The translations under genes were made by a program, and so were the position numbers. Under the pieces are notes generated by a model, which saw only the letters and a program-made list of their open reading frames with translations, searched no databases and was not told where the DNA came from. 64,000 nucleotides of DNA from Thermofilaceae archaeon (GTDB lineage Archaea; Thermoproteota; Thermoprotei; Thermofilales; Thermofilaceae), in contig JAWCCZ010000003.1 of the NCBI GenBank assembly GCA_038861545.1, positions 32,001 to 96,000 of the forward strand. The letters are read 5' to 3'. Below, piece by piece: positions 9,275 to 27,918 of the stretch (position 1 is the first letter of the stretch; every line of letters begins with the position of its first letter).

Positions 9275-9895
9275 ATGGATCTAACACTTAGGTCATCGGA
9301 TATAAAAAGGGTTTTTGCTGTAAAGGCATCGCTCGCTTGCTCTGGTGGAAAAATTAACGCTAAGGCACTAGCCTCACACGGCAGGCTGGATGTAGTAGCT
9401 AGGGCTATACTAGCAGCTCTATCTTTAAGAGCTGGTACTAGGTTAGACACAGTTTTTTATGCTACCCTCGAAGGATTACCTCACCCGCCGATAACTATTG
9501 AAGTTAGAGGTTGGGAACTTAAGCATCCGATAGGAAGTGAAGAAGATATTGGAAATTTACTGTCAAGGCTTTTCTTGGGTCATCACATTGAAGGGGTGGA
9601 TGCTTGGGAGATGAGTTTTAAGGAATTAGTTTCGGAGTTGGTGAATTCGTTTGGGTCAAAACAAGTTATTTACCTACATGAAGCAGGCGAAGATATATCC
9701 AATCTAAGCTTAGAGGGTAAAATAGCAGTATTACTCGGTGATCATAAAGGCATCGATAGGAAAACTGAAACGTGGATTAAGTTCCTGGGAATACGTTGGT
9801 TTAGCCTTAGTCCTCAACCGTACTTTACCGAGCATTGTATTTCTTTTATCAATTATCTGTTAGATGAGGGCATACGTTTACTGAAGCGTTTTTAG
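9275..9895 (+). CDS. trmY: TrmY-family SPOUT methyltransferase (tRNA pseudouridine-54 N1), paralog A
   Basis: GRLDVVAR, YLHEAGEDI, LGDHKGI, SLSP, HCI. Confidence 0.82.
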   Translation: MDLTLRSSDIKRVFAVKASLACSGGKINAKALASHGRLDVVARAILAALSLRAGTRLDTVFYATLEGLPHPPITIEVRGWELKHPIGSEEDIGNLLSRLFLGHHIEGVDAWEMSFKELVSELVNSFGSKQVIYLHEAGEDISNLSLEGKIAVLLGDHKGIDRKTETWIKFLGIRWFSLSPQPYFTEHCISFINYLLDEGIRLLKRF

Positions 9896-11472
9896 AACAA
9901 CAACTTCGGTCTGATTTCTATCTCAACACCAAGCCTTCTGGCGGCCCGCTCGATTTTCCTACGAGGTTTCCCTACTACGTAATTATAATATTCTTCGTCG
10001 ACCAGTACAATTACTTTGTTGCCTTCAATAGAAGCTATTTCAATATTACCTTCAGGGAAATATTTTTTCAAGATACCAGCTAAGCGGGTCTTAACAACTT
10101 CTTCTCCGCGAACGGCGCCTCTTCCCTTTATGGGAACTACGAAGGTTCTATCTCCGAAGACATACAATTCATATTCTGGTTCTCCCGACAAGTAATCCTT
10201 GACCACGACTACTGGTCTAGCTAGCTCAGCTTCTCTAAGACCATGTGGGACTTTTACTACAGTCTCTAACTCATAAACCTTCTTTACCTCGCCTTCAGCT
10301 ATAAATATCACCGTGTCAATTATAGAAGGTATCATACCTAACTCAATTCTACCTATAAAACGCTGTATAGCATCTATGGGACTGGTCGCGTGCACAACCC
10401 CGACCATTCCTACACCAGCTAGCCTTAAATCAGAAAAGAGTTCGAAGTCGCTTGTGTTCCTCATTTCATCAAAAAATGTGTAATCTGGCCTGGAGAGCAG
10501 AAGAATATCGTGGAGCTCCTCAGAAGAGGCATAGTTTTTAGAGTACTGAGTTACATCGCTAGGCAATTGCATGTCACGAGGCGATTCTATAGTCTTCACA
10601 ATTTTACCTTTCCTGCGGTAGTATTCTGCTAACGCTTGGGCAAACGTGGTTTTACCCATACCCGGTGCACCGGCAATAAGTATACCCTCTGCCTGTTTTT
10701 CGAGCCGGTGCATAAGTCTGGGAGGAAGACTATAATCCTCTAAGCTGAGCCTTACTAGGGGTCTTACTGCAGTCACCTCCAAACCATCCGATAACGGGGG
10801 TCTAGTAATCACTATCCGGTAGCTGCCAACCTGTAATATTATGGATCCTGGTTTATCGCTTTCGATGAAAGCTGAATGATTACTTTTAGCATACTCTAAA
10901 ATTTCCTCTATAATATTTTCTAATTCCTCTCGGGTCATTAATTCCTCACTCAGTTGCACAAAACGCCATTTACCTGGTTTACCTACTTTAGCACGAGGCT
11001 GAACCCCCTCTTTTAGATGGATAGACATAGTATCATTAGAGAAAAACTGATCTAGCACAAATCCCTCACCTTTAGTTGGTTCGAGATGCAACGTTTGAAT
11101 GCCAGAACTTTTAGCAGCTTCCGCACAAATCTGGTCTGATGTTATTAGAGTGGCGCTAAGCTCCATTGCAAGTTCTCTAATTACTTCATCAGGTGAAAGG
11201 TCCCTTAACCATCTTAGCCCTTCTGGAAGATCTCTGACGTATTCAACACTAATAGAGTCTCTTTTAGCTATTATAAGCTCTCTGATCTGACTTAGTTCCC
11301 TTAATCCTACGAACCCCCTGTGGCTCCCCTCCCGAGCTAATCTCTCAAAATACGAAATAACAAGTGAATGAAGAATTAATCTACCAGTGATACTCCCTTC
11401 TTGCAATGCTTTTCGTAAAGCTCCAGTGGCTATTACGGTAGTATCAGCGATGTAAAGCTCTTCATCAGACAT
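9892..11472 (-). CDS. PIN-domain/VirB11-like ATPase with KH-like tail (PINA family)
   Basis: N-terminal ADTTVI PIN, GAPGMGKTT, RPDYTFFDEMR, GVVHA. Confidence 0.9.
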   Translation of the reverse strand: MSDEELYIADTTVIATGALRKALQEGSITGRLILHSLVISYFERLAREGSHRGFVGLRELSQIRELIIAKRDSISVEYVRDLPEGLRWLRDLSPDEVIRELAMELSATLITSDQICAEAAKSSGIQTLHLEPTKGEGFVLDQFFSNDTMSIHLKEGVQPRAKVGKPGKWRFVQLSEELMTREELENIIEEILEYAKSNHSAFIESDKPGSIILQVGSYRIVITRPPLSDGLEVTAVRPLVRLSLEDYSLPPRLMHRLEKQAEGILIAGAPGMGKTTFAQALAEYYRRKGKIVKTIESPRDMQLPSDVTQYSKNYASSEELHDILLLSRPDYTFFDEMRNTSDFELFSDLRLAGVGMVGVVHATSPIDAIQRFIGRIELGMIPSIIDTVIFIAEGEVKKVYELETVVKVPHGLREAELARPVVVVKDYLSGEPEYELYVFGDRTFVVPIKGRGAVRGEEVVKTRLAGILKKYFPEGNIEIASIEGNKVIVLVDEEYYNYVVGKPRRKIERAARRLGVEIEIRPKLLF

Positions 11473-22155: not shown

Positions 22156-22707
22156 TTGCACCTTAATAAGAGTCTGCTTAAGGCGTCCCTGATGGAAGGC
22201 GTTAAGGAGAACAAGGTCGGTTGTACCAGCATAGACGAGCTTTTTCAGGGGTTAAGAAGGGAACCTCATAATTTGCTTGAAGCGCTTAGAAGGGTGCAGG
22301 CTCGTCACGGGTACCTGCCGCTTGAGGGGATTAAGAAAGCTGCTGAGTATGTAGGAGTCCCATTAGCTCAAGCTTATAGTGTCGCTACATTTTACCATCA
22401 ATATAGCTTAGAGCCAGTGGGTAAGTACAGAATACTTGTGTGCATGGGTACTGCTTGTCATCTTCGTGGTAATAATTTAAACATAGAATTTCTGCGTACT
22501 ATGCTAGGATTAAAATCGGGTCAGAAAACTACAAGTGACGGTATTTTTTCGGTAGAGGAAGCTCGTTGCTTTGGTTGCTGCGGGCTCGCCCCGGTCGTGG
22601 TAGTTCAACATTCTGGCGGTAAAAACGAGATAGTAGGTAGGGCAAACGCGCGAACGCTAAGGGCAGTTATAACGAAATACAGGAAGCTCGAAGGGGGTGC
22701 GGACTAA
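22156..22707 (+). CDS. HydC/NuoE-like [2Fe-2S] subunit
   Basis: YSVATFY, VCMGTACHLRG, RCFGCCGLAP; start may be ATG 22192. Confidence 0.92.
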   Translation: MHLNKSLLKASLMEGVKENKVGCTSIDELFQGLRREPHNLLEALRRVQARHGYLPLEGIKKAAEYVGVPLAQAYSVATFYHQYSLEPVGKYRILVCMGTACHLRGNNLNIEFLRTMLGLKSGQKTTSDGIFSVEEARCFGCCGLAPVVVVQHSGGKNEIVGRANARTLRAVITKYRKLEGGAD

Positions 22708-24696
22708 ATGTCATGGAGTTTATTAGATAAATGTTGTGAAAAATGCAAACATTCACTAGAAACCCCGTGTCCAGATGTTATAGAGTGTTCGTTAAATGGT
22801 CCATTATGTCACAGTAATGAAGAATGTGTTCAGAAAAGAAAGGTTAGAATTGAGCAGCTGCATTACGGAGAAAAGGGGGCTAAAATCAAAGTACCATGGA
22901 CAAGCTGCACACTTGCTACGGGTGCGGAGGCAATCTACCAGGTAGTTGTTGACTACATCTCAAAAAAAGGATTAGATATAACCGTGTCAATCTCCGGTTG
23001 CTATGGTCTTGATTTTATCGATCCTTGGATTGAGTTTACAGCAAAGGATATGCCCACAGTCGTCTACGCTAACGTTAAAGAAAGCAGCGTGCCGAAGCTC
23101 ATAGAAAAGTACTTTGTAAATCGAGACGTTAGCGGGGCTTTTGCGCTTAAAGAGCGAACCGGCAACACTAAAGGCGAGGATCAGATACCCTTGCTCAGCG
23201 AGTTAGATTTCTGGAGGAAGCAGTACAAATGGGTTTCTCGAAACTGTGGCATAGTCAATCCAGAGTCGCTTGAAGAATACATAGCTTCAGGCGGCTACAA
23301 AGGGCTTAGCAAAGCTCTAAAAATAGGGCCGGATGCCGTTATAGATGAAATTCAGAAAAGTGGATTGAGGGGGCGAGGTGGCGCAGGTTTTCCAACAGGC
23401 TTAAAGTGGAGAATAACAAGACAGCAACGCGCTACACCGAAGTATGCTATAGCTAATGCTGATGAGGGCGATCCAGGCGCGTTTATGAATAGATTGCTAG
23501 CAGAGTCTGATCCCTTCAGAATTGTAGAGGGGTTAACAATAGCTGGCTATGCTGTTGGTGCTAGCAGGGGCTTCATTTTCGTGCGGGCTGAAAAACCTTT
23601 AATGGCTAGGAGATTACAGAGAGCAGTTGAAGAGGCCAGAAAGTATGGCTTACTGGGTATGAATATTCTTAGCTCGGGCTTCAATTTCGATATAGAAGTG
23701 ATACTCAGCGCTGGAGCTTTTGTGTGTGGTGAAGAAACAGCGCTTATCGCCGCTATTGAAGGTAAAAGGGCTTGGCCTCGGCAACGGCCACCCTATCCAG
23801 CTGAAAAAGGATTATGGGGCCAACCTACAGTGATAAATAATGTAGAGACACTAGCTCATGCGGCTACGATTATGGCTGAAGGTGCAGAGAAGTTCTCTGC
23901 TTTAGGTAGCGATAAAACAAAGGGTACGAAAATGTTCTGTGTTACTGGGACGGTCAAAAGAACGGGTGCGTATGAAGTGCCAATAGGAGTTACTATCCGA
24001 ACCCTTGTTGAAGAGTTAGCGGGAGGCGCGCCAGAGGGGGCAAAGATTAAAGCAGTACAGATAGGAGGGCCATCGGGTGGCTGCATACCAGCTTCGCTCT
24101 TAGATTTACAAGTAGATTATGAAACCCTACAAAGCGCTGGTGCTATAATGGGAAGCGGAGGTGTAGTCGCCATTAGCGATGAGAACTGCATGGTTGATGC
24201 GGCCAAGTTTTTCCTAACATTCACATCGGCAGAGTCCTGCGGAAAATGTATACCTTGCCGAGTGGGGTTACGAGTAATGTGGAGCATTCTAGATAAAATA
24301 ACGCATGGCAAAGGTCAAGAAGGTGATTTAGAGATCTTAAAACAGCTCGCCGAGACTGTTCGAACCACAAGTTTGTGTGCTCTAGGAGGGACTGCACCGA
24401 ACCCAGTACTTTCCACGCTCCGCTACTTTATGGATGAGTATGAAGCACATATCAAAGAAAAAATATGTCCTGCAAATGTATGTGCTACACTGATTACTTA
24501 CTCGATAGATGAAAATATATGTATAGGTTGCGGGCAATGTGCAATGAATTGTCCAACAAACGCTGTATCAAAACTTGTAAGCGGTAAGTACTCTATAAAT
24601 CAAAATTCATGCATTAAATGTGGAACTTGCTATATAATTTGCCCAGTAAGGGCTGTGAAAAAAGCTAGCGGTTCAGGAGGTGGTAGAAATGGTTAA
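22708..24696 (+). CDS. HydB/NuoF-like FMN- and NAD(P)H-binding subunit with C-terminal 2x[4Fe-4S]
   Basis: GLRGRGGAGFPTG, NADEGDPG, GAFVCGEETAL, ESCGKCIPCRVG, CPANVC, two CxxCxxC. Confidence 0.94.
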   Translation: MSWSLLDKCCEKCKHSLETPCPDVIECSLNGPLCHSNEECVQKRKVRIEQLHYGEKGAKIKVPWTSCTLATGAEAIYQVVVDYISKKGLDITVSISGCYGLDFIDPWIEFTAKDMPTVVYANVKESSVPKLIEKYFVNRDVSGAFALKERTGNTKGEDQIPLLSELDFWRKQYKWVSRNCGIVNPESLEEYIASGGYKGLSKALKIGPDAVIDEIQKSGLRGRGGAGFPTGLKWRITRQQRATPKYAIANADEGDPGAFMNRLLAESDPFRIVEGLTIAGYAVGASRGFIFVRAEKPLMARRLQRAVEEARKYGLLGMNILSSGFNFDIEVILSAGAFVCGEETALIAAIEGKRAWPRQRPPYPAEKGLWGQPTVINNVETLAHAATIMAEGAEKFSALGSDKTKGTKMFCVTGTVKRTGAYEVPIGVTIRTLVEELAGGAPEGAKIKAVQIGGPSGGCIPASLLDLQVDYETLQSAGAIMGSGGVVAISDENCMVDAAKFFLTFTSAESCGKCIPCRVGLRVMWSILDKITHGKGQEGDLEILKQLAETVRTTSLCALGGTAPNPVLSTLRYFMDEYEAHIKEKICPANVCATLITYSIDENICIGCGQCAMNCPTNAVSKLVSGKYSINQNSCIKCGTCYIICPVRAVKKASGSGGGRNG

Positions 24697-25342
24697 AGTA
24701 AAAATTAATGGAACAATTATCGAAGTTGAACCTGGGACCTCAGTACTAGCTGCGGCTGAGAAAGCGGGTTTAAGGATTCCCCACCTTTGCGCAGTCAAAG
24801 ATATTTATGAAGGTGCTAGCTGTAGGCTATGCTTAGTTAAAACCCCGACGGGACGTCTCTTTCCAGCCTGTGCTTACTATGTATACAGGGATGAGGAATT
24901 CATTAGCGATTCACCAGATTTGAAGATGACAAGAAAAGCAAATTTTGAATTTATTCTTAAGTTCCATAGAATGGAGTGCTGGCTTTGCCCACGCAAAGGT
25001 AACTGCATGCTAACCGAGTTATCAAAGGAATTGGCAGTCGAAGGAATCCCTGTATGTGCAGAGTGTCCTCTTTCTCCAGAAGAATGCCTGCTAACTAAGG
25101 GCGTGTCCTGTCTTGGACCGATTACAATATCCGGATGCAATGCAGAGTGTACCGAGAGTGGAGGACCATGTTGGGGCTGCCGTGGCCCAGTATCTAGAGC
25201 AGATGTGATTGAAAACGCAGTTTTACGCTATAGGGAGCTAGGGATAGATACAGACACAATTTTGAGAAAAGCTGATATTTTCTGGAATTCGCTCCCCGAA
25301 TTCGAAGTGGTGAAAAAGGTGTTTAACACGGTGAGAGTGTAA
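24680..25342 (+). CDS. Chimeric Fe-S subunit: HydA/NuoG N-terminal half plus [NiFe] small-subunit C-terminal half
   Basis: IPHLC..CRLC..PAC [2Fe-2S] and HRMECWLCPRKGNC, then VCAEC..CLL..CLGPIT.SGC.A.C....PCWGCRGP. Confidence 0.85.
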   Translation: MVEMVKVKINGTIIEVEPGTSVLAAAEKAGLRIPHLCAVKDIYEGASCRLCLVKTPTGRLFPACAYYVYRDEEFISDSPDLKMTRKANFEFILKFHRMECWLCPRKGNCMLTELSKELAVEGIPVCAECPLSPEECLLTKGVSCLGPITISGCNAECTESGGPCWGCRGPVSRADVIENAVLRYRELGIDTDTILRKADIFWNSLPEFEVVKKVFNTVRV

Positions 25343-26625
25343 TGAATGGCCAGAATAGCAGCTTAGTTATAGAAGAAATCCCAGCAGTTGCTGGACATGT
25401 TGATGTATACGTTGAGGGTAAAGAAACAGTTGTCCGAGTTAAGTTTAGTGTTACTCAGGATCCCAGGTTCTTCGAACGTTTTCTTAAAGGACGACCAAGC
25501 GTGGAAGTACCGTACGTAATGTCACGTATATGTGGTGTTTGCAGCATTGTACACTTAACTTGTTCAATAGATGCTATAGAAAAAGCGCTCGGCGTTGAAC
25601 CGAGTGAAGAAATCCTCAAACTTAGGAAGCTAGCTAAGGGCCTAGAGGTAATCCAGAACAACTTAGTACATGTTTTAATGTCTTTGCCGGATTTCACAGG
25701 TTGCAACGATGTTGTAAGTTTTTCCAAAGGCTACCAAAACATTTTCAATAAGTTGATGAACACTAATAGGCTAGCACTAGAAGCTTACAAAAGGATCTGT
25801 GGGAGATTCGTTCACACTCCAACTCTAGGTGTTGCAGCGCACAGTAAGCCGGTAAGCAAGTACGAGCTAGAGTCAGCGGGTAAACTGCTTCATACAGTAG
25901 CTAAAGAGCTTGAAGAGATGGTCAGTGATTTGGCAGAAATATGGAGGCCTCTTGCGGAAGGATTTAGCGATCCGGCGCCTACTTACTGTGTTTTAAATAG
26001 CGATGAAGAGTACCCCCTATTTAGCCCGAGCTTATTGTTTTCTGACGGAGTAACAGTCCCCGTCGAGAAATATAGTACTGTTATAGAGGAGTTAAGATCC
26101 CCCTACTCCAACGCTCATTATACCCTTTATAGAAACGGGGCTTTTTATAGTGGATCCAGGGCAAGGATTCAAGCATATTCAAAAATTATCGGCAGCGAGA
26201 TCTCGGCGATAACGAAAATGTTGAGTATAGATCCCAGCAATCCATTCGATAATGTAAAAGCGCAATATATAGAAGTAGTTTATTTATCAAGTTTCTTAGG
26301 TGATTTGGCTTTTGATCTAGCCGAGGAATTCCGAGGAGGCATAAGCCCCTCTCACGTCGCATACTCTAGTGGAAGCGGTGAGGGAGTAGCAGCTGCGACT
26401 GCTCCGAGAGGTGTCCTTATACACCATTATATCGTAAAGGGAGGTAAGCTAGAAAGCGCAAATATCATAACTCCTACAGTTATTAATGCAAGACATATGG
26501 AGGTAGCCGGTGAAGCTTTAGTTCGAAGGCTTGTGGAATGTGGTGAAAGTGAAAAAAGCATAAAAAGTATGGTAGCCGCGCTTGTAAGAGCTTACGATCC
26601 ATGTCTACCATGTGCTGTCCATTAG
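25342..26625 (+). CDS. [NiFe]-hydrogenase large subunit (group 3-like)
   Basis: L1 SRICGVCSIVH, APRG, TPT..N, L2 YDPCLPCAVH at the very C-terminus. Confidence 0.92.
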   Translation: MNGQNSSLVIEEIPAVAGHVDVYVEGKETVVRVKFSVTQDPRFFERFLKGRPSVEVPYVMSRICGVCSIVHLTCSIDAIEKALGVEPSEEILKLRKLAKGLEVIQNNLVHVLMSLPDFTGCNDVVSFSKGYQNIFNKLMNTNRLALEAYKRICGRFVHTPTLGVAAHSKPVSKYELESAGKLLHTVAKELEEMVSDLAEIWRPLAEGFSDPAPTYCVLNSDEEYPLFSPSLLFSDGVTVPVEKYSTVIEELRSPYSNAHYTLYRNGAFYSGSRARIQAYSKIIGSEISAITKMLSIDPSNPFDNVKAQYIEVVYLSSFLGDLAFDLAEEFRGGISPSHVAYSSGSGEGVAAATAPRGVLIHHYIVKGGKLESANIITPTVINARHMEVAGEALVRRLVECGESEKSIKSMVAALVRAYDPCLPCAVH

Positions 26626-27918
26626 GTGATGAGTATGAAGGTAGCATTTTTCTCATTCGGAGCATGTGAAGGTTGCAGGTATAGGATGGTGAACGAGCTT
26701 TCTAGGATACTCAGTATAGATGGTATTGAAATAGTAAGGGAGCCCTTACTCGGGTTAGCTTCTGAAGATGAGTACGATATAGCTGTGGTGGAAGGCGCGT
26801 TAACCTCCCACGATATGGAAAAATGCAAGGAAATCAGGAGTAAGGCAAAGTATGTAATAGCTTTAGGAAGCTGTGCATACCTTGGCGGAATTACTACATT
26901 AGGGTATAAGTATGGTTTTCAAGCTGAAGAATACATTAAGAGGGGTTACAAAGAATCCATTCCACTTCAGCGAGTAATAGGCGTTGACAACTACGTTAGA
27001 GGTTGTCCCGCCAGCATTGAAGAACTAGCTAATGTTCTGAGGGAGATAATTACTTCCGGTGCATTGCCTAGATATGAGAGAAGGTTCGAGTTTGAAAAAA
27101 TCTCAAGCATCGTGTTAAAAGATGAGTTCCTTAAATTAGATACAGGTAAGTGTATCGTCTGCGGAAGATGTGTTGAGATTTGTTCCCAGATAAATGTGCA
27201 CGCACTAACGCAAGCCTTTCGGGGATTCCGAGTGATCGTGAGCACTCCTGGTCAACTGAGTTTCCTCGAAGCCGGTTGTATACATTGTGGGCTTTGTGCA
27301 GCTATTTGTCCAGTAGGAGCTGTGACTTATAGAAGTGACATAGAGGCATCATTGAAAGCCATCCGCTCTGGTGCTAGTGTAGTAGCCGAGATCACGGCTC
27401 TAGATGCGGCAGCTAAAGCTCTTGGTGTAGAGACTGGGCAGACGGTATCTTTGCTTAAGCAACTTGGAGCGTCTAACGTTAAAGTAGTGGATCCAATAAA
27501 TTTAGTTACGAATAAAGTTGGCATAGTGCCATTCAGTGTAGCTGAGGAAAGATGGATAAAAGTTATCTATCCTCAGGCTAGCGAATACCTTCTTCAACGA
27601 CCAATACTAAATGCTCAAGGCGTTCTGCTAATCACTGCTTGTGCTTCCAGGAAGGAAGAGCATACACCAACTTTAACGGCGCACGAGTTAACCATCTTGG
27701 CAAAAGGATGCGGCTTAGTCTTAGAGGATCTGCCGGCAGTTAATTTTGATTTTCAACCCGCTTCTAGATCAAACCTAAGAGTAGTTAAAGGTCCAAGCGA
27801 ATCTACCGAAGCTATACAAGAATTCTTAGAATCACCTACCCATACGTTAGTAGTGCAACTTTGCCCTATGGGTTGCGAAAAAGGATCTGGCATTCCATTT
27901 AAATTGCTTAACAGATAG
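26626..27918 (+). CDS. Chimeric Fe-S subunit: [NiFe] small-subunit N-terminal half plus HydA C-terminal half with degenerate H-domain
   Basis: CEGC, VEGA, LGSCA..GG, VRGCP, then KCIVCGRC, CIHCGLCAAICPVGA, ITACASRKEE, LTAHEL, LCPMGCEKGSG. Confidence 0.85.
   Translation: MMSMKVAFFSFGACEGCRYRMVNELSRILSIDGIEIVREPLLGLASEDEYDIAVVEGALTSHDMEKCKEIRSKAKYVIALGSCAYLGGITTLGYKYGFQAEEYIKRGYKESIPLQRVIGVDNYVRGCPASIEELANVLREIITSGALPRYERRFEFEKISSIVLKDEFLKLDTGKCIVCGRCVEICSQINVHALTQAFRGFRVIVSTPGQLSFLEAGCIHCGLCAAICPVGAVTYRSDIEASLKAIRSGASVVAEITALDAAAKALGVETGQTVSLLKQLGASNVKVVDPINLVTNKVGIVPFSVAEERWIKVIYPQASEYLLQRPILNAQGVLLITACASRKEEHTPTLTAHELTILAKGCGLVLEDLPAVNFDFQPASRSNLRVVKGPSESTEAIQEFLESPTHTLVVQLCPMGCEKGSGIPFKLLNR

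Follow-up and report, generated by a model that had tools for sequence, protein, structure and literature searches.

Group F [FeFe] hydrogenases, which form complexes with [NiFe] hydrogenases, were described from uncultured archaea by Greening et al. 2024 (Cell 187:3357; PMC11216029), who proposed the names group F and group 3f. They define the group by a fusion in which a HyhS domain stands N-terminal to the HydA catalytic domain, and the fusion gene is contiguous with the genes of HyhL, HydB, HydC and a four-cluster conduit subunit, HydD. The hosts belong to the Thermoproteia, Bathyarchaeia, Brockarchaeia, Thermoplasmata and Lokiarchaeia (21 published genomes). H2 production was reported there for one group F fusion protein, Th1, after artificial maturation. 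The authors also state that the cysteines of the H-cluster are conserved, and they attribute the three [4Fe-4S] clusters of the fusion to the small subunit. A search of the literature for later work on group F gave nothing beyond this paper. Here we analyse a stretch of 64,000 nucleotides (hereafter the window) from contig JAWCCZ010000003.1 of a Thermofilaceae archaeon, in which five contiguous genes between positions 22156 and 27918 were compared with this class. A sequence-only reading of the window had taken these genes as a hybrid of a HydABC module and a [NiFe] hydrogenase in which HydA and the small subunit have exchanged halves, and had considered the architecture possibly undescribed. 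The exchange is borne out by our results, and the host is indeed a thermoproteote of the Thermofilaceae type. The supposed novelty is not, as the same five genes are already present in PMC11216029, Thermoproteia included, and their architecture is the standard one of the described group F/3f.

The five open reading frames (ORFs), all on the forward strand, were found at exactly the positions that had been read as five abutting or overlapping genes, with neighbours abutting or overlapping by 1-17 nt. Their order is hydC, hydB, a chimera of the N-terminal part of HydA with the C-terminal half of a [NiFe] small subunit (first chimera, 220 aa, 24680-25342), a group 3 [NiFe] large subunit, and a chimera of the N-terminal half of the small subunit with the HydA ferredoxin domain and a shrunken H-domain (second chimera, 430 aa, 26626-27918). 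Thus the small-subunit/H-domain fusion, the contiguous HydC, HydB, HydD and group 3 large subunit, and a HydD with four clusters are all present, and by gene content and domain order the window operon is a group F [FeFe]/group 3f [NiFe] hybrid hydrogenase. It is very probable that the region is one operon for a soluble HydABC/Bfu-type complex of this published class. With the group F/3f hybrids (exemplar Thermoplasmatota UBA147) it shares the five contiguous genes, an archaeal host, the lack of HydEFG seen in most host genomes, and a predicted bifurcating complex with the converging cluster on the fusion. It differs in three respects. The exemplar HydB has a GltA/GltD-type domain in place of which the window HydB has a CCxxC prefix together with a C-terminal 2x[4Fe-4S] domain, the L1 motif of the H-like domain contains no cysteine in the window whereas the paper has the H-cluster cysteines conserved, and the paper calls HydD 'NuoG-like' with no mention of the medial/distal half of a small subunit.

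The flavin module consists of a NuoF-like HydB with extra N- and C-terminal domains and a NuoE-like [2Fe-2S] subunit, HydC, as in Bfu-type (HydABC) modules. HydB begins with a CCxxC prefix, has a Bfu-type domain in its N-terminal part and carries a 2x[4Fe-4S] ferredoxin domain at the C-terminus. Full-length matches were obtained to the HydB of the [NiFe] enzyme of A. mobile (7t2r_B, E=2e-192), to A. woodii HydB (7q4v_B), to 8a6t_B and 9n5u_B, and to NfnB; over the solved bifurcating HydB/NfnB proteins the E-values lie between 1e-176 and 1.6e-201, the N-terminal and the C-terminal 2x[4Fe-4S] domains being included. Pfam, NCBIfam and PDB matches therefore agree with the earlier assignment of the hydrogenase to a HydB/HydC flavin module. 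The Cys-rich 'NuoF prefix CCxxC' domain (window 22708-22870; NF040902, aa 4-52) is left uncovered by the matched solved HydB structures.

In the first chimera, aa 5-125 correspond to positions 1-122 of the NCBIfam model of NADH-dependent [FeFe] hydrogenase A6, and aa 121-201 to positions 156-237 (of 240) of the sulfhydrogenase small subunit ShyD, with E=3.9e-18. On comparison with PDB entries, aa 3-123 correspond to residues 2-122 of T. kivui HydA1 and aa 123-215 to residues 161-256 of sulfhydrogenase I delta. The ligands are invariant among 20 homologues and fit four Fe-S clusters: four cysteines for the [2Fe-2S] cluster (C37, C48, C51, C64), a histidine and three cysteines for the His-ligated [4Fe-4S] cluster (H96, C100, C103, C109), and eight cysteines in the small-subunit part for the medial and distal clusters (C126, C129, C136, C144, C153, C157, C164, C167). 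In the second chimera, aa 4-142 correspond to ShyD positions 1-148, with further matches to MvhG (2-116) and A. mobile HydS (4-169), and the proximal-cluster cysteines C14, C17, C83 and C127 are kept in 66-68 of the 68 family sequences. The following part, aa 161-273, corresponds to positions 132-248 of the A6 model and, as aa 153-273, to residues 123-247 of T. kivui HydA1 (E=5.6e-20); its ferredoxin domain (F-domain) has eight cysteines, C176 to C228, present in all 68 sequences. Profile models, Pfam and PDB matches for the ORF at 24680, and models, hhalign and Foldseek matches for that at 26626, thus converge on the composition that the sequence-only reading had given to each. We also considered the second chimera as an FrhG-type small subunit, having a ferredoxin-like C-terminal half, with an added domain. 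This was rejected: the match to bifurcating HydA is the stronger (5.6e-20 against 2e-12), and the similarity to HydA reaches both sides of the 2x[4Fe-4S] region, into the linker and the start of the H-domain.

The breakpoints of the two chimeras are complementary. HydA is cut at residue 122/123 (T. kivui HydA1 numbering) and the small subunit at about 148/156, with the junctions near nt 25040-25055 and 27050-27105, close to the earlier estimates of about 25040 and 27090; together the two chimeras contain one HydA and one small subunit, each split at a domain boundary. The same relation is seen from the side of ordinary 247-aa group 3 small subunits, encoded beside related loci (L022, L027), of which the first ~140 residues match the second chimera and the rest match the first. 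It may be noted that nowhere does the text of PMC11216029 use the words split, swap, proximal or distal. Its Methods place the HydD cofactors from 7T2R chain A and 5ODC chain E (MvhG), and since both templates are taken, a small-subunit-like part of HydD was used there. The reciprocal swap is thus implied by those Methods though never stated, and its explicit reading is a small addition of the present analysis.

A complex of the two chimeras was predicted with an ipSAE of 0.80, as opposed to 0.00 for the best of 3 controls; the mark applied is reached by 58 of 80 solved complexes and by 2 of 110 mismatched pairs. Contact agreement between runs was at least 88% and the partner predicted local distance difference test score (pLDDT) at least 87. 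The predicted interface is bipartite, with residues 125-127 of the small-subunit N-half touching residues 150 and 167-169 of the C-half, and F-domain residues 172-177 and 228-230 touching residues 92-111 of the His-cluster domain. Each half is therefore paired in the model with its complement, as a swap predicts, which lends support to the earlier idea that the exchange interlocks the two chimeras. Structures have been solved both for HydA and for small subunits, so that this pass may reflect likeness to them rather than proof of binding.

The same gene order, the two halves of either chimera sharing a frame, was found in 22 species-level loci (species-representative genomes) from Thermofilaceae, Desulfurococcales, Wolframiiraptor, Archaeoglobales, Sulfolobales, Ignisphaera, Zestosphaera and Nitrososphaeria. 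Both fusions, which the earlier reading had proposed to look for in other genomes, are thus conserved in dozens of independent assemblies. The fusion protein has ~33 full-length cluster relatives of 426-470 aa and ~20 representative clusters at E<=1e-10 among 1.84 billion proteins. Two near relatives (L088 and L089, 84-89% identity, independent assemblies) carry the same operon with the same neighbours. These results dispose of the reading in which the chimeric ORFs are artefacts of a metagenome-assembled genome, due to wrongly joined contigs or to errors of sequencing: both chimeras have the same junctions in about 33 protein clusters, they recur with the gene order in 22 archaeal species genomes, which are independent and stem from different studies and assemblers, their frames are intact in the two near relatives at a synonymous divergence (dS) of 0.3-0.9, and the G+C composition is even over the whole operon region. 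An artefact of assembly or frameshift is ruled out on this ground, and its chance is practically nil. Within the window's own family the fusion gene is present in 10 of 23 genomes and 5 of 9 genera, and this patchy spread by genus suggests loss or transfer. One genus (g9, G015-G022) lacks the fusion gene in all eight of its genomes, of which five are closed or nearly closed.

The H-like domain of the second chimera is some 160 residues shorter than the H-domain of group A enzymes. The fusion family aligns with group A HydA at an hhalign probability of 99.9% over aa 150-430, with large deletions, and the L3 motif (aa 386-425) aligns with residues 467-508 of T. kivui HydA1. The AlphaFold model (pLDDT 80) has its best Foldseek matches in 8a6t_A (T. 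kivui HydA), 7p5h_A (T. maritima HydA) and CpI. A search of the window's own genome with PF02906 gave no match, the domain being recognised solely by profile-profile and fold comparison. Of the cysteine ligands of the H-cluster the set is incomplete: only C339, C413 and C417 (CpI 355, 499 and 503; L2 and L3) are kept, and they are so in 67-68 of 68 sequences. In L1, F303 stands at the position of CpI Cys299, the proton relay, and S304, invariant in this branch, at that of Cys300, followed by x-Ala-Glu. Pocket residues are replaced as well (Lys358 by Arg, Met353 by Thr, Met497 by Gln). L1 has no cysteine at all in 63 of the 68 family sequences, is Cys-Cys in 2 (P0071, L027) and Cys-Ser in 3 (P0067, P0014, L002), of which P0014 and L002 are Thermofilaceae. 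At L002:7001-8272 (P0014) L1 reads P-C-S-I-A-E amid a clade otherwise devoid of that cysteine, which suggests that the cysteine was regained or patchily retained. The cysteine-retaining relatives P0071 (Cys-Cys) and P0067 (Cys-Ser) carry the same operon. By comparison with two near relatives, the H-like domain is under purifying selection, with an omega of 0.16-0.21, somewhat relaxed relative to the remaining domains at 0.03-0.14. HydE and HydG were absent from the 92%-complete genome and HydF gave generic GTPase matches, none above the cut-off; HypD, on the other hand, was found. Archaea with [FeFe] hydrogenases usually lack HydEFG. The H-like domain most likely holds a [4Fe-4S] centre with three cysteines and a serine, with H2 catalysis nil or poor.

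The large subunit matches sulfhydrogenase I alpha (9e15_B) over its full length with E=8e-40. Its metal ligands, RICGVC and DPCLPC, are present in the window and conserved in 20 of 20 sequences. The RxEGH motif reads A-V-A-G-H, so that the proton-relay glutamate is replaced by alanine; this glutamate is missing in all 20 family members examined, the position being A, F or V, whereas sulfhydrogenase I alpha retains R-V-E-G at the aligned site. The protein stops at the histidine of DPCxxCxxH (DPCLPCAVH-stop), leaving no C-terminal peptide. Large subunits without a cleavable peptide are found in the Thermofilaceae and the L005/L006 clades, and other clades have a tail of 4-11 residues.

Further known systems were compared with the locus. 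The bifurcating NiFe-HydABCSL of A. mobile (7T2R/7T30), with its [NiFe] site on a HydABC scaffold, is alike in its HydB and HydC modules (HydB E=2e-192), in a HydS that matches the small-subunit N-half, and in a HydA that matches both HydA-derived pieces. Its HydA is a single chain of 692 aa with no H-domain and its HydS a separate 179-aa protein with the N-half alone; nothing is cross-fused, and no small-subunit C-half was matched there. The undivided HydA and separate short HydS of that type are thus not found in the window. For the HydA-derived parts the best matches, in sequence as in fold, are to the electron-bifurcating [FeFe] HydABC enzymes (T. maritima 7P5H, T. kivui 8A6T, A. woodii 7Q4V), the cut falling exactly at T. 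kivui HydA1 residue 122/123 and the second L1 serine being shared with A. woodii HydA1. They differ in having no [NiFe] module and in a full-size H-domain with the relay cysteine, Lys358 and the methionines. To the group 3b sulfhydrogenase of P. furiosus (SHI, 9E15/9NEZ) the large subunit and both small-subunit halves are closest (SHI alpha and delta), except that SHI has an undivided small subunit and a large subunit in which the glutamate of RVEG is retained. With group 3d Hox enzymes, HoxE and HoxU models match HydC and the HydA-derived parts, and these two are the only Hox models that matched. The peripheral arm of complex I (NuoE, F, G, B, D) has homologous parts in the same logical order, namely the FMN (flavin mononucleotide) subunit, [2Fe-2S], F-domain cluster, His-ligated cluster, NuoB/small-subunit cluster and NuoD/large-subunit site. 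It is unlike the window operon in lacking a metal H2 site, in having NuoG as one chain, and in two bridging clusters contributed by NuoI and not by a small-subunit C-half.

By analogy with HydABC, NiFe-HydABCSL and complex I, we infer a forked wiring. Electrons would pass between FMN on HydB and the [2Fe-2S] cluster of the first chimera, and then to the F-domain clusters of the second, where the path would fork, one branch leading to the [NiFe] site and the other to the H-like domain. The [NiFe] branch would run through the His-ligated, distal and medial clusters of the first chimera to the proximal cluster of the second and on to the [NiFe] site, which we take as the working H2 site in this Thermofilaceae branch. 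Each chimera would provide half of each wire, so that neither module could assemble without the other. The function would be a reversible coupling of H2 to NAD(P)H and ferredoxin by flavin-based bifurcation or confurcation, which is the most likely one because HydB matches the solved bifurcating HydB/NfnB over its full length. For the dominant Ser-x-Ala-Glu branch of the family, this genome included, a reading that is possible but somewhat less likely than not goes a step beyond this. The H-like domain would no longer be an H2 site but a conserved [4Fe-4S] module with three cysteines and a serine, or a purely structural one, the hybrid would be a [NiFe]-only bifurcating enzyme, and the split would have arisen by one insertion of a permuted [small-C|large|small-N] cassette into hydA. 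If so, this enzyme would be an intermediate, with a true double hydrogenase on one side and, on the other, the HydA/NuoG scaffolds of A. mobile and complex I, which have no H-cluster.

The working of the group F/3f complex as a double hydrogenase is the proposal of PMC11216029. On that view H2 would be turned over at two places, the [NiFe] site and the H-like domain, the latter holding a full H-cluster built by an as yet undescribed archaeal pathway. The evolution of H2 from artificially matured Th1 and the modelling of both sites in that paper speak for it, as do the purifying selection on the H-like domain, the retention of the bridging cysteine and two further cluster cysteines in 67-68 of 68 sequences, and the serine that the active A. 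woodii HydA1 also has at the fourth ligand position. In this branch it has to contend with a hydrophobic residue at the Cys299 relay position, the three pocket replacements, a domain ~160 residues short of group A that PF02906 does not detect, and a genome without HydE, HydG or a true HydF, and for the window enzyme we regard it as rather unlikely. Also unlikely is a non-bifurcating NAD(P)-linked enzyme of the Hox/sulfhydrogenase kind, with the flavin passing two electrons between H2 and NAD(P) and no coupling to ferredoxin. The matches of HoxE and HoxU models to HydC and both chimeras, and the closeness of the large subunit to NAD(P)-dependent sulfhydrogenases, would fit such an enzyme. HydB does not, as its full-length match to bifurcating HydB/NfnB includes the N-terminal domain and the C-terminal 2x[4Fe-4S] domain, which neither NuoF nor the non-bifurcating formate dehydrogenase beta subunits among the same matches possess, and the gene set is that of the bifurcating A. 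mobile NiFe-HydABCSL with extra domains.

Several points weigh against our reading of the operon as a bifurcating group F/3f complex with the [NiFe] site as its working H2 site. The H2 production by Th1 and the cysteines reported as conserved argue that some family members have a working [FeFe] site. The solved bifurcating A. woodii HydA1 (7q4v_A) has the motif TSCSPGW, with serine at the position of the CpI ligand Cys300, which bears on how L1 is read in divergent HydA relatives: S304 may be in the normal ligand position with the relay cysteine alone lost, and because A. woodii HydA1 also has a serine there, the L1 serine may be ancestral and the single cysteine the decisive loss. Since the lack of HydEFG is usual in archaea with such genes, it is weak evidence for an inactive domain. 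With the relay glutamate missing across the family, the [NiFe] activity is itself not certain. The window HydB has no GltA-type domain, which the exemplar HydB of the 2024 paper has. Lastly, we infer that the enzyme bifurcates, that ferredoxin is its partner and in which direction H2 flows.

Hybrid hydrogenases inform the kinship of the two hydrogenase families and the NADH-dehydrogenase arm of complex I, and this locus adds a thermoproteote member. The complex is made of reciprocally exchanged halves, with neither the [NiFe] wire nor the HydA wire on one polypeptide, and in most of the family the relay glutamate of the [NiFe] site, the L1 cysteine(s) and several residues of the H-cluster pocket are missing. 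In the published text these two points are either implicit or given otherwise. Physiological models with two H2 sites in these archaea would need revision should the H-like domain prove inactive. The classification is unchanged by these points, the enzyme type being already described; the residual interest lies in the explicit reciprocal split and in the doubt whether the H-like domain is catalytic in the family's dominant branch.

Table 1. Genes and domain parts of the hybrid hydrogenase operon, in window coordinates.
Feature	Position	Strand	Support
hydC, NuoE/HoxE-like thioredoxin-fold [2Fe-2S] subunit	22156..22707	+	PF01257 E=2.8e-39; HoxE and NuoE models match
hydB, NuoF-like FMN/NAD(P)H subunit	22708..24696	+	PF01512, PF10589, SLBB and Fer4 match
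First chimera ('HydD'), N-part: HydA/NuoG [2Fe-2S] and His-ligated [4Fe-4S] domains, aa 1-121	24680..25042	+	PF13510 aa 3-69; PF10588 aa 85-121
First chimera, C-part: medial/distal-cluster half of group 3 [NiFe] small subunit, aa 122-220	25043..25342	+	ShyD match
hyhL, group 3 (3b-like, '3f') [NiFe] large subunit	25342..26625	+	PF00374; ShyA E=3e-50
Second chimera (HyhS-HydA), N-part: proximal-cluster half of [NiFe] small subunit, aa 1-148	26626..27069	+	PF01058 aa 14-140
Second chimera, middle: HydA linker and 2x[4Fe-4S] F-domain, aa 149-240	27070..27345	+	T. kivui HydA1 match
Second chimera, C-part: shrunken H-domain, ~190 aa against ~350; L1 is P-F-S-V-A-E	27346..27918	+	hhalign, Foldseek

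Two of the ORF starts probably lie downstream of those tabulated. For hydC the probable start is the ATG at 22192, with which the protein would have the same 171 aa as its homologues in L088 and L089; for the second chimera the probable start is the ATG at 26635. The operon is flanked by housekeeping genes, with aIF5A upstream and a major facilitator superfamily (MFS) transporter and a tRNA synthetase downstream. At the operons of the L1-cysteine-retaining relatives (L090:2087-3873; L091:1-853; L092:2224-3387, 9503-9997) a gene for a GAF-domain protein lies directly upstream, and in L090 and L092 a HycI-type endopeptidase gene lies near the operon; both genes are absent at the window operon. 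In Bathyarchaeia-type loci (L022:1-8287, L026, L028) no large-subunit gene separates the two chimeric genes, which lie side by side; after them, L022 has an 825-aa HdrA-like/MvhD fusion and next an ordinary pair of group 3 small and large subunits. The window's genome has two further [NiFe] large-subunit genes (G000:C4:87849-88070 and G000:C1:543135-543344), so that the hybrid enzyme is not its sole hydrogenase.

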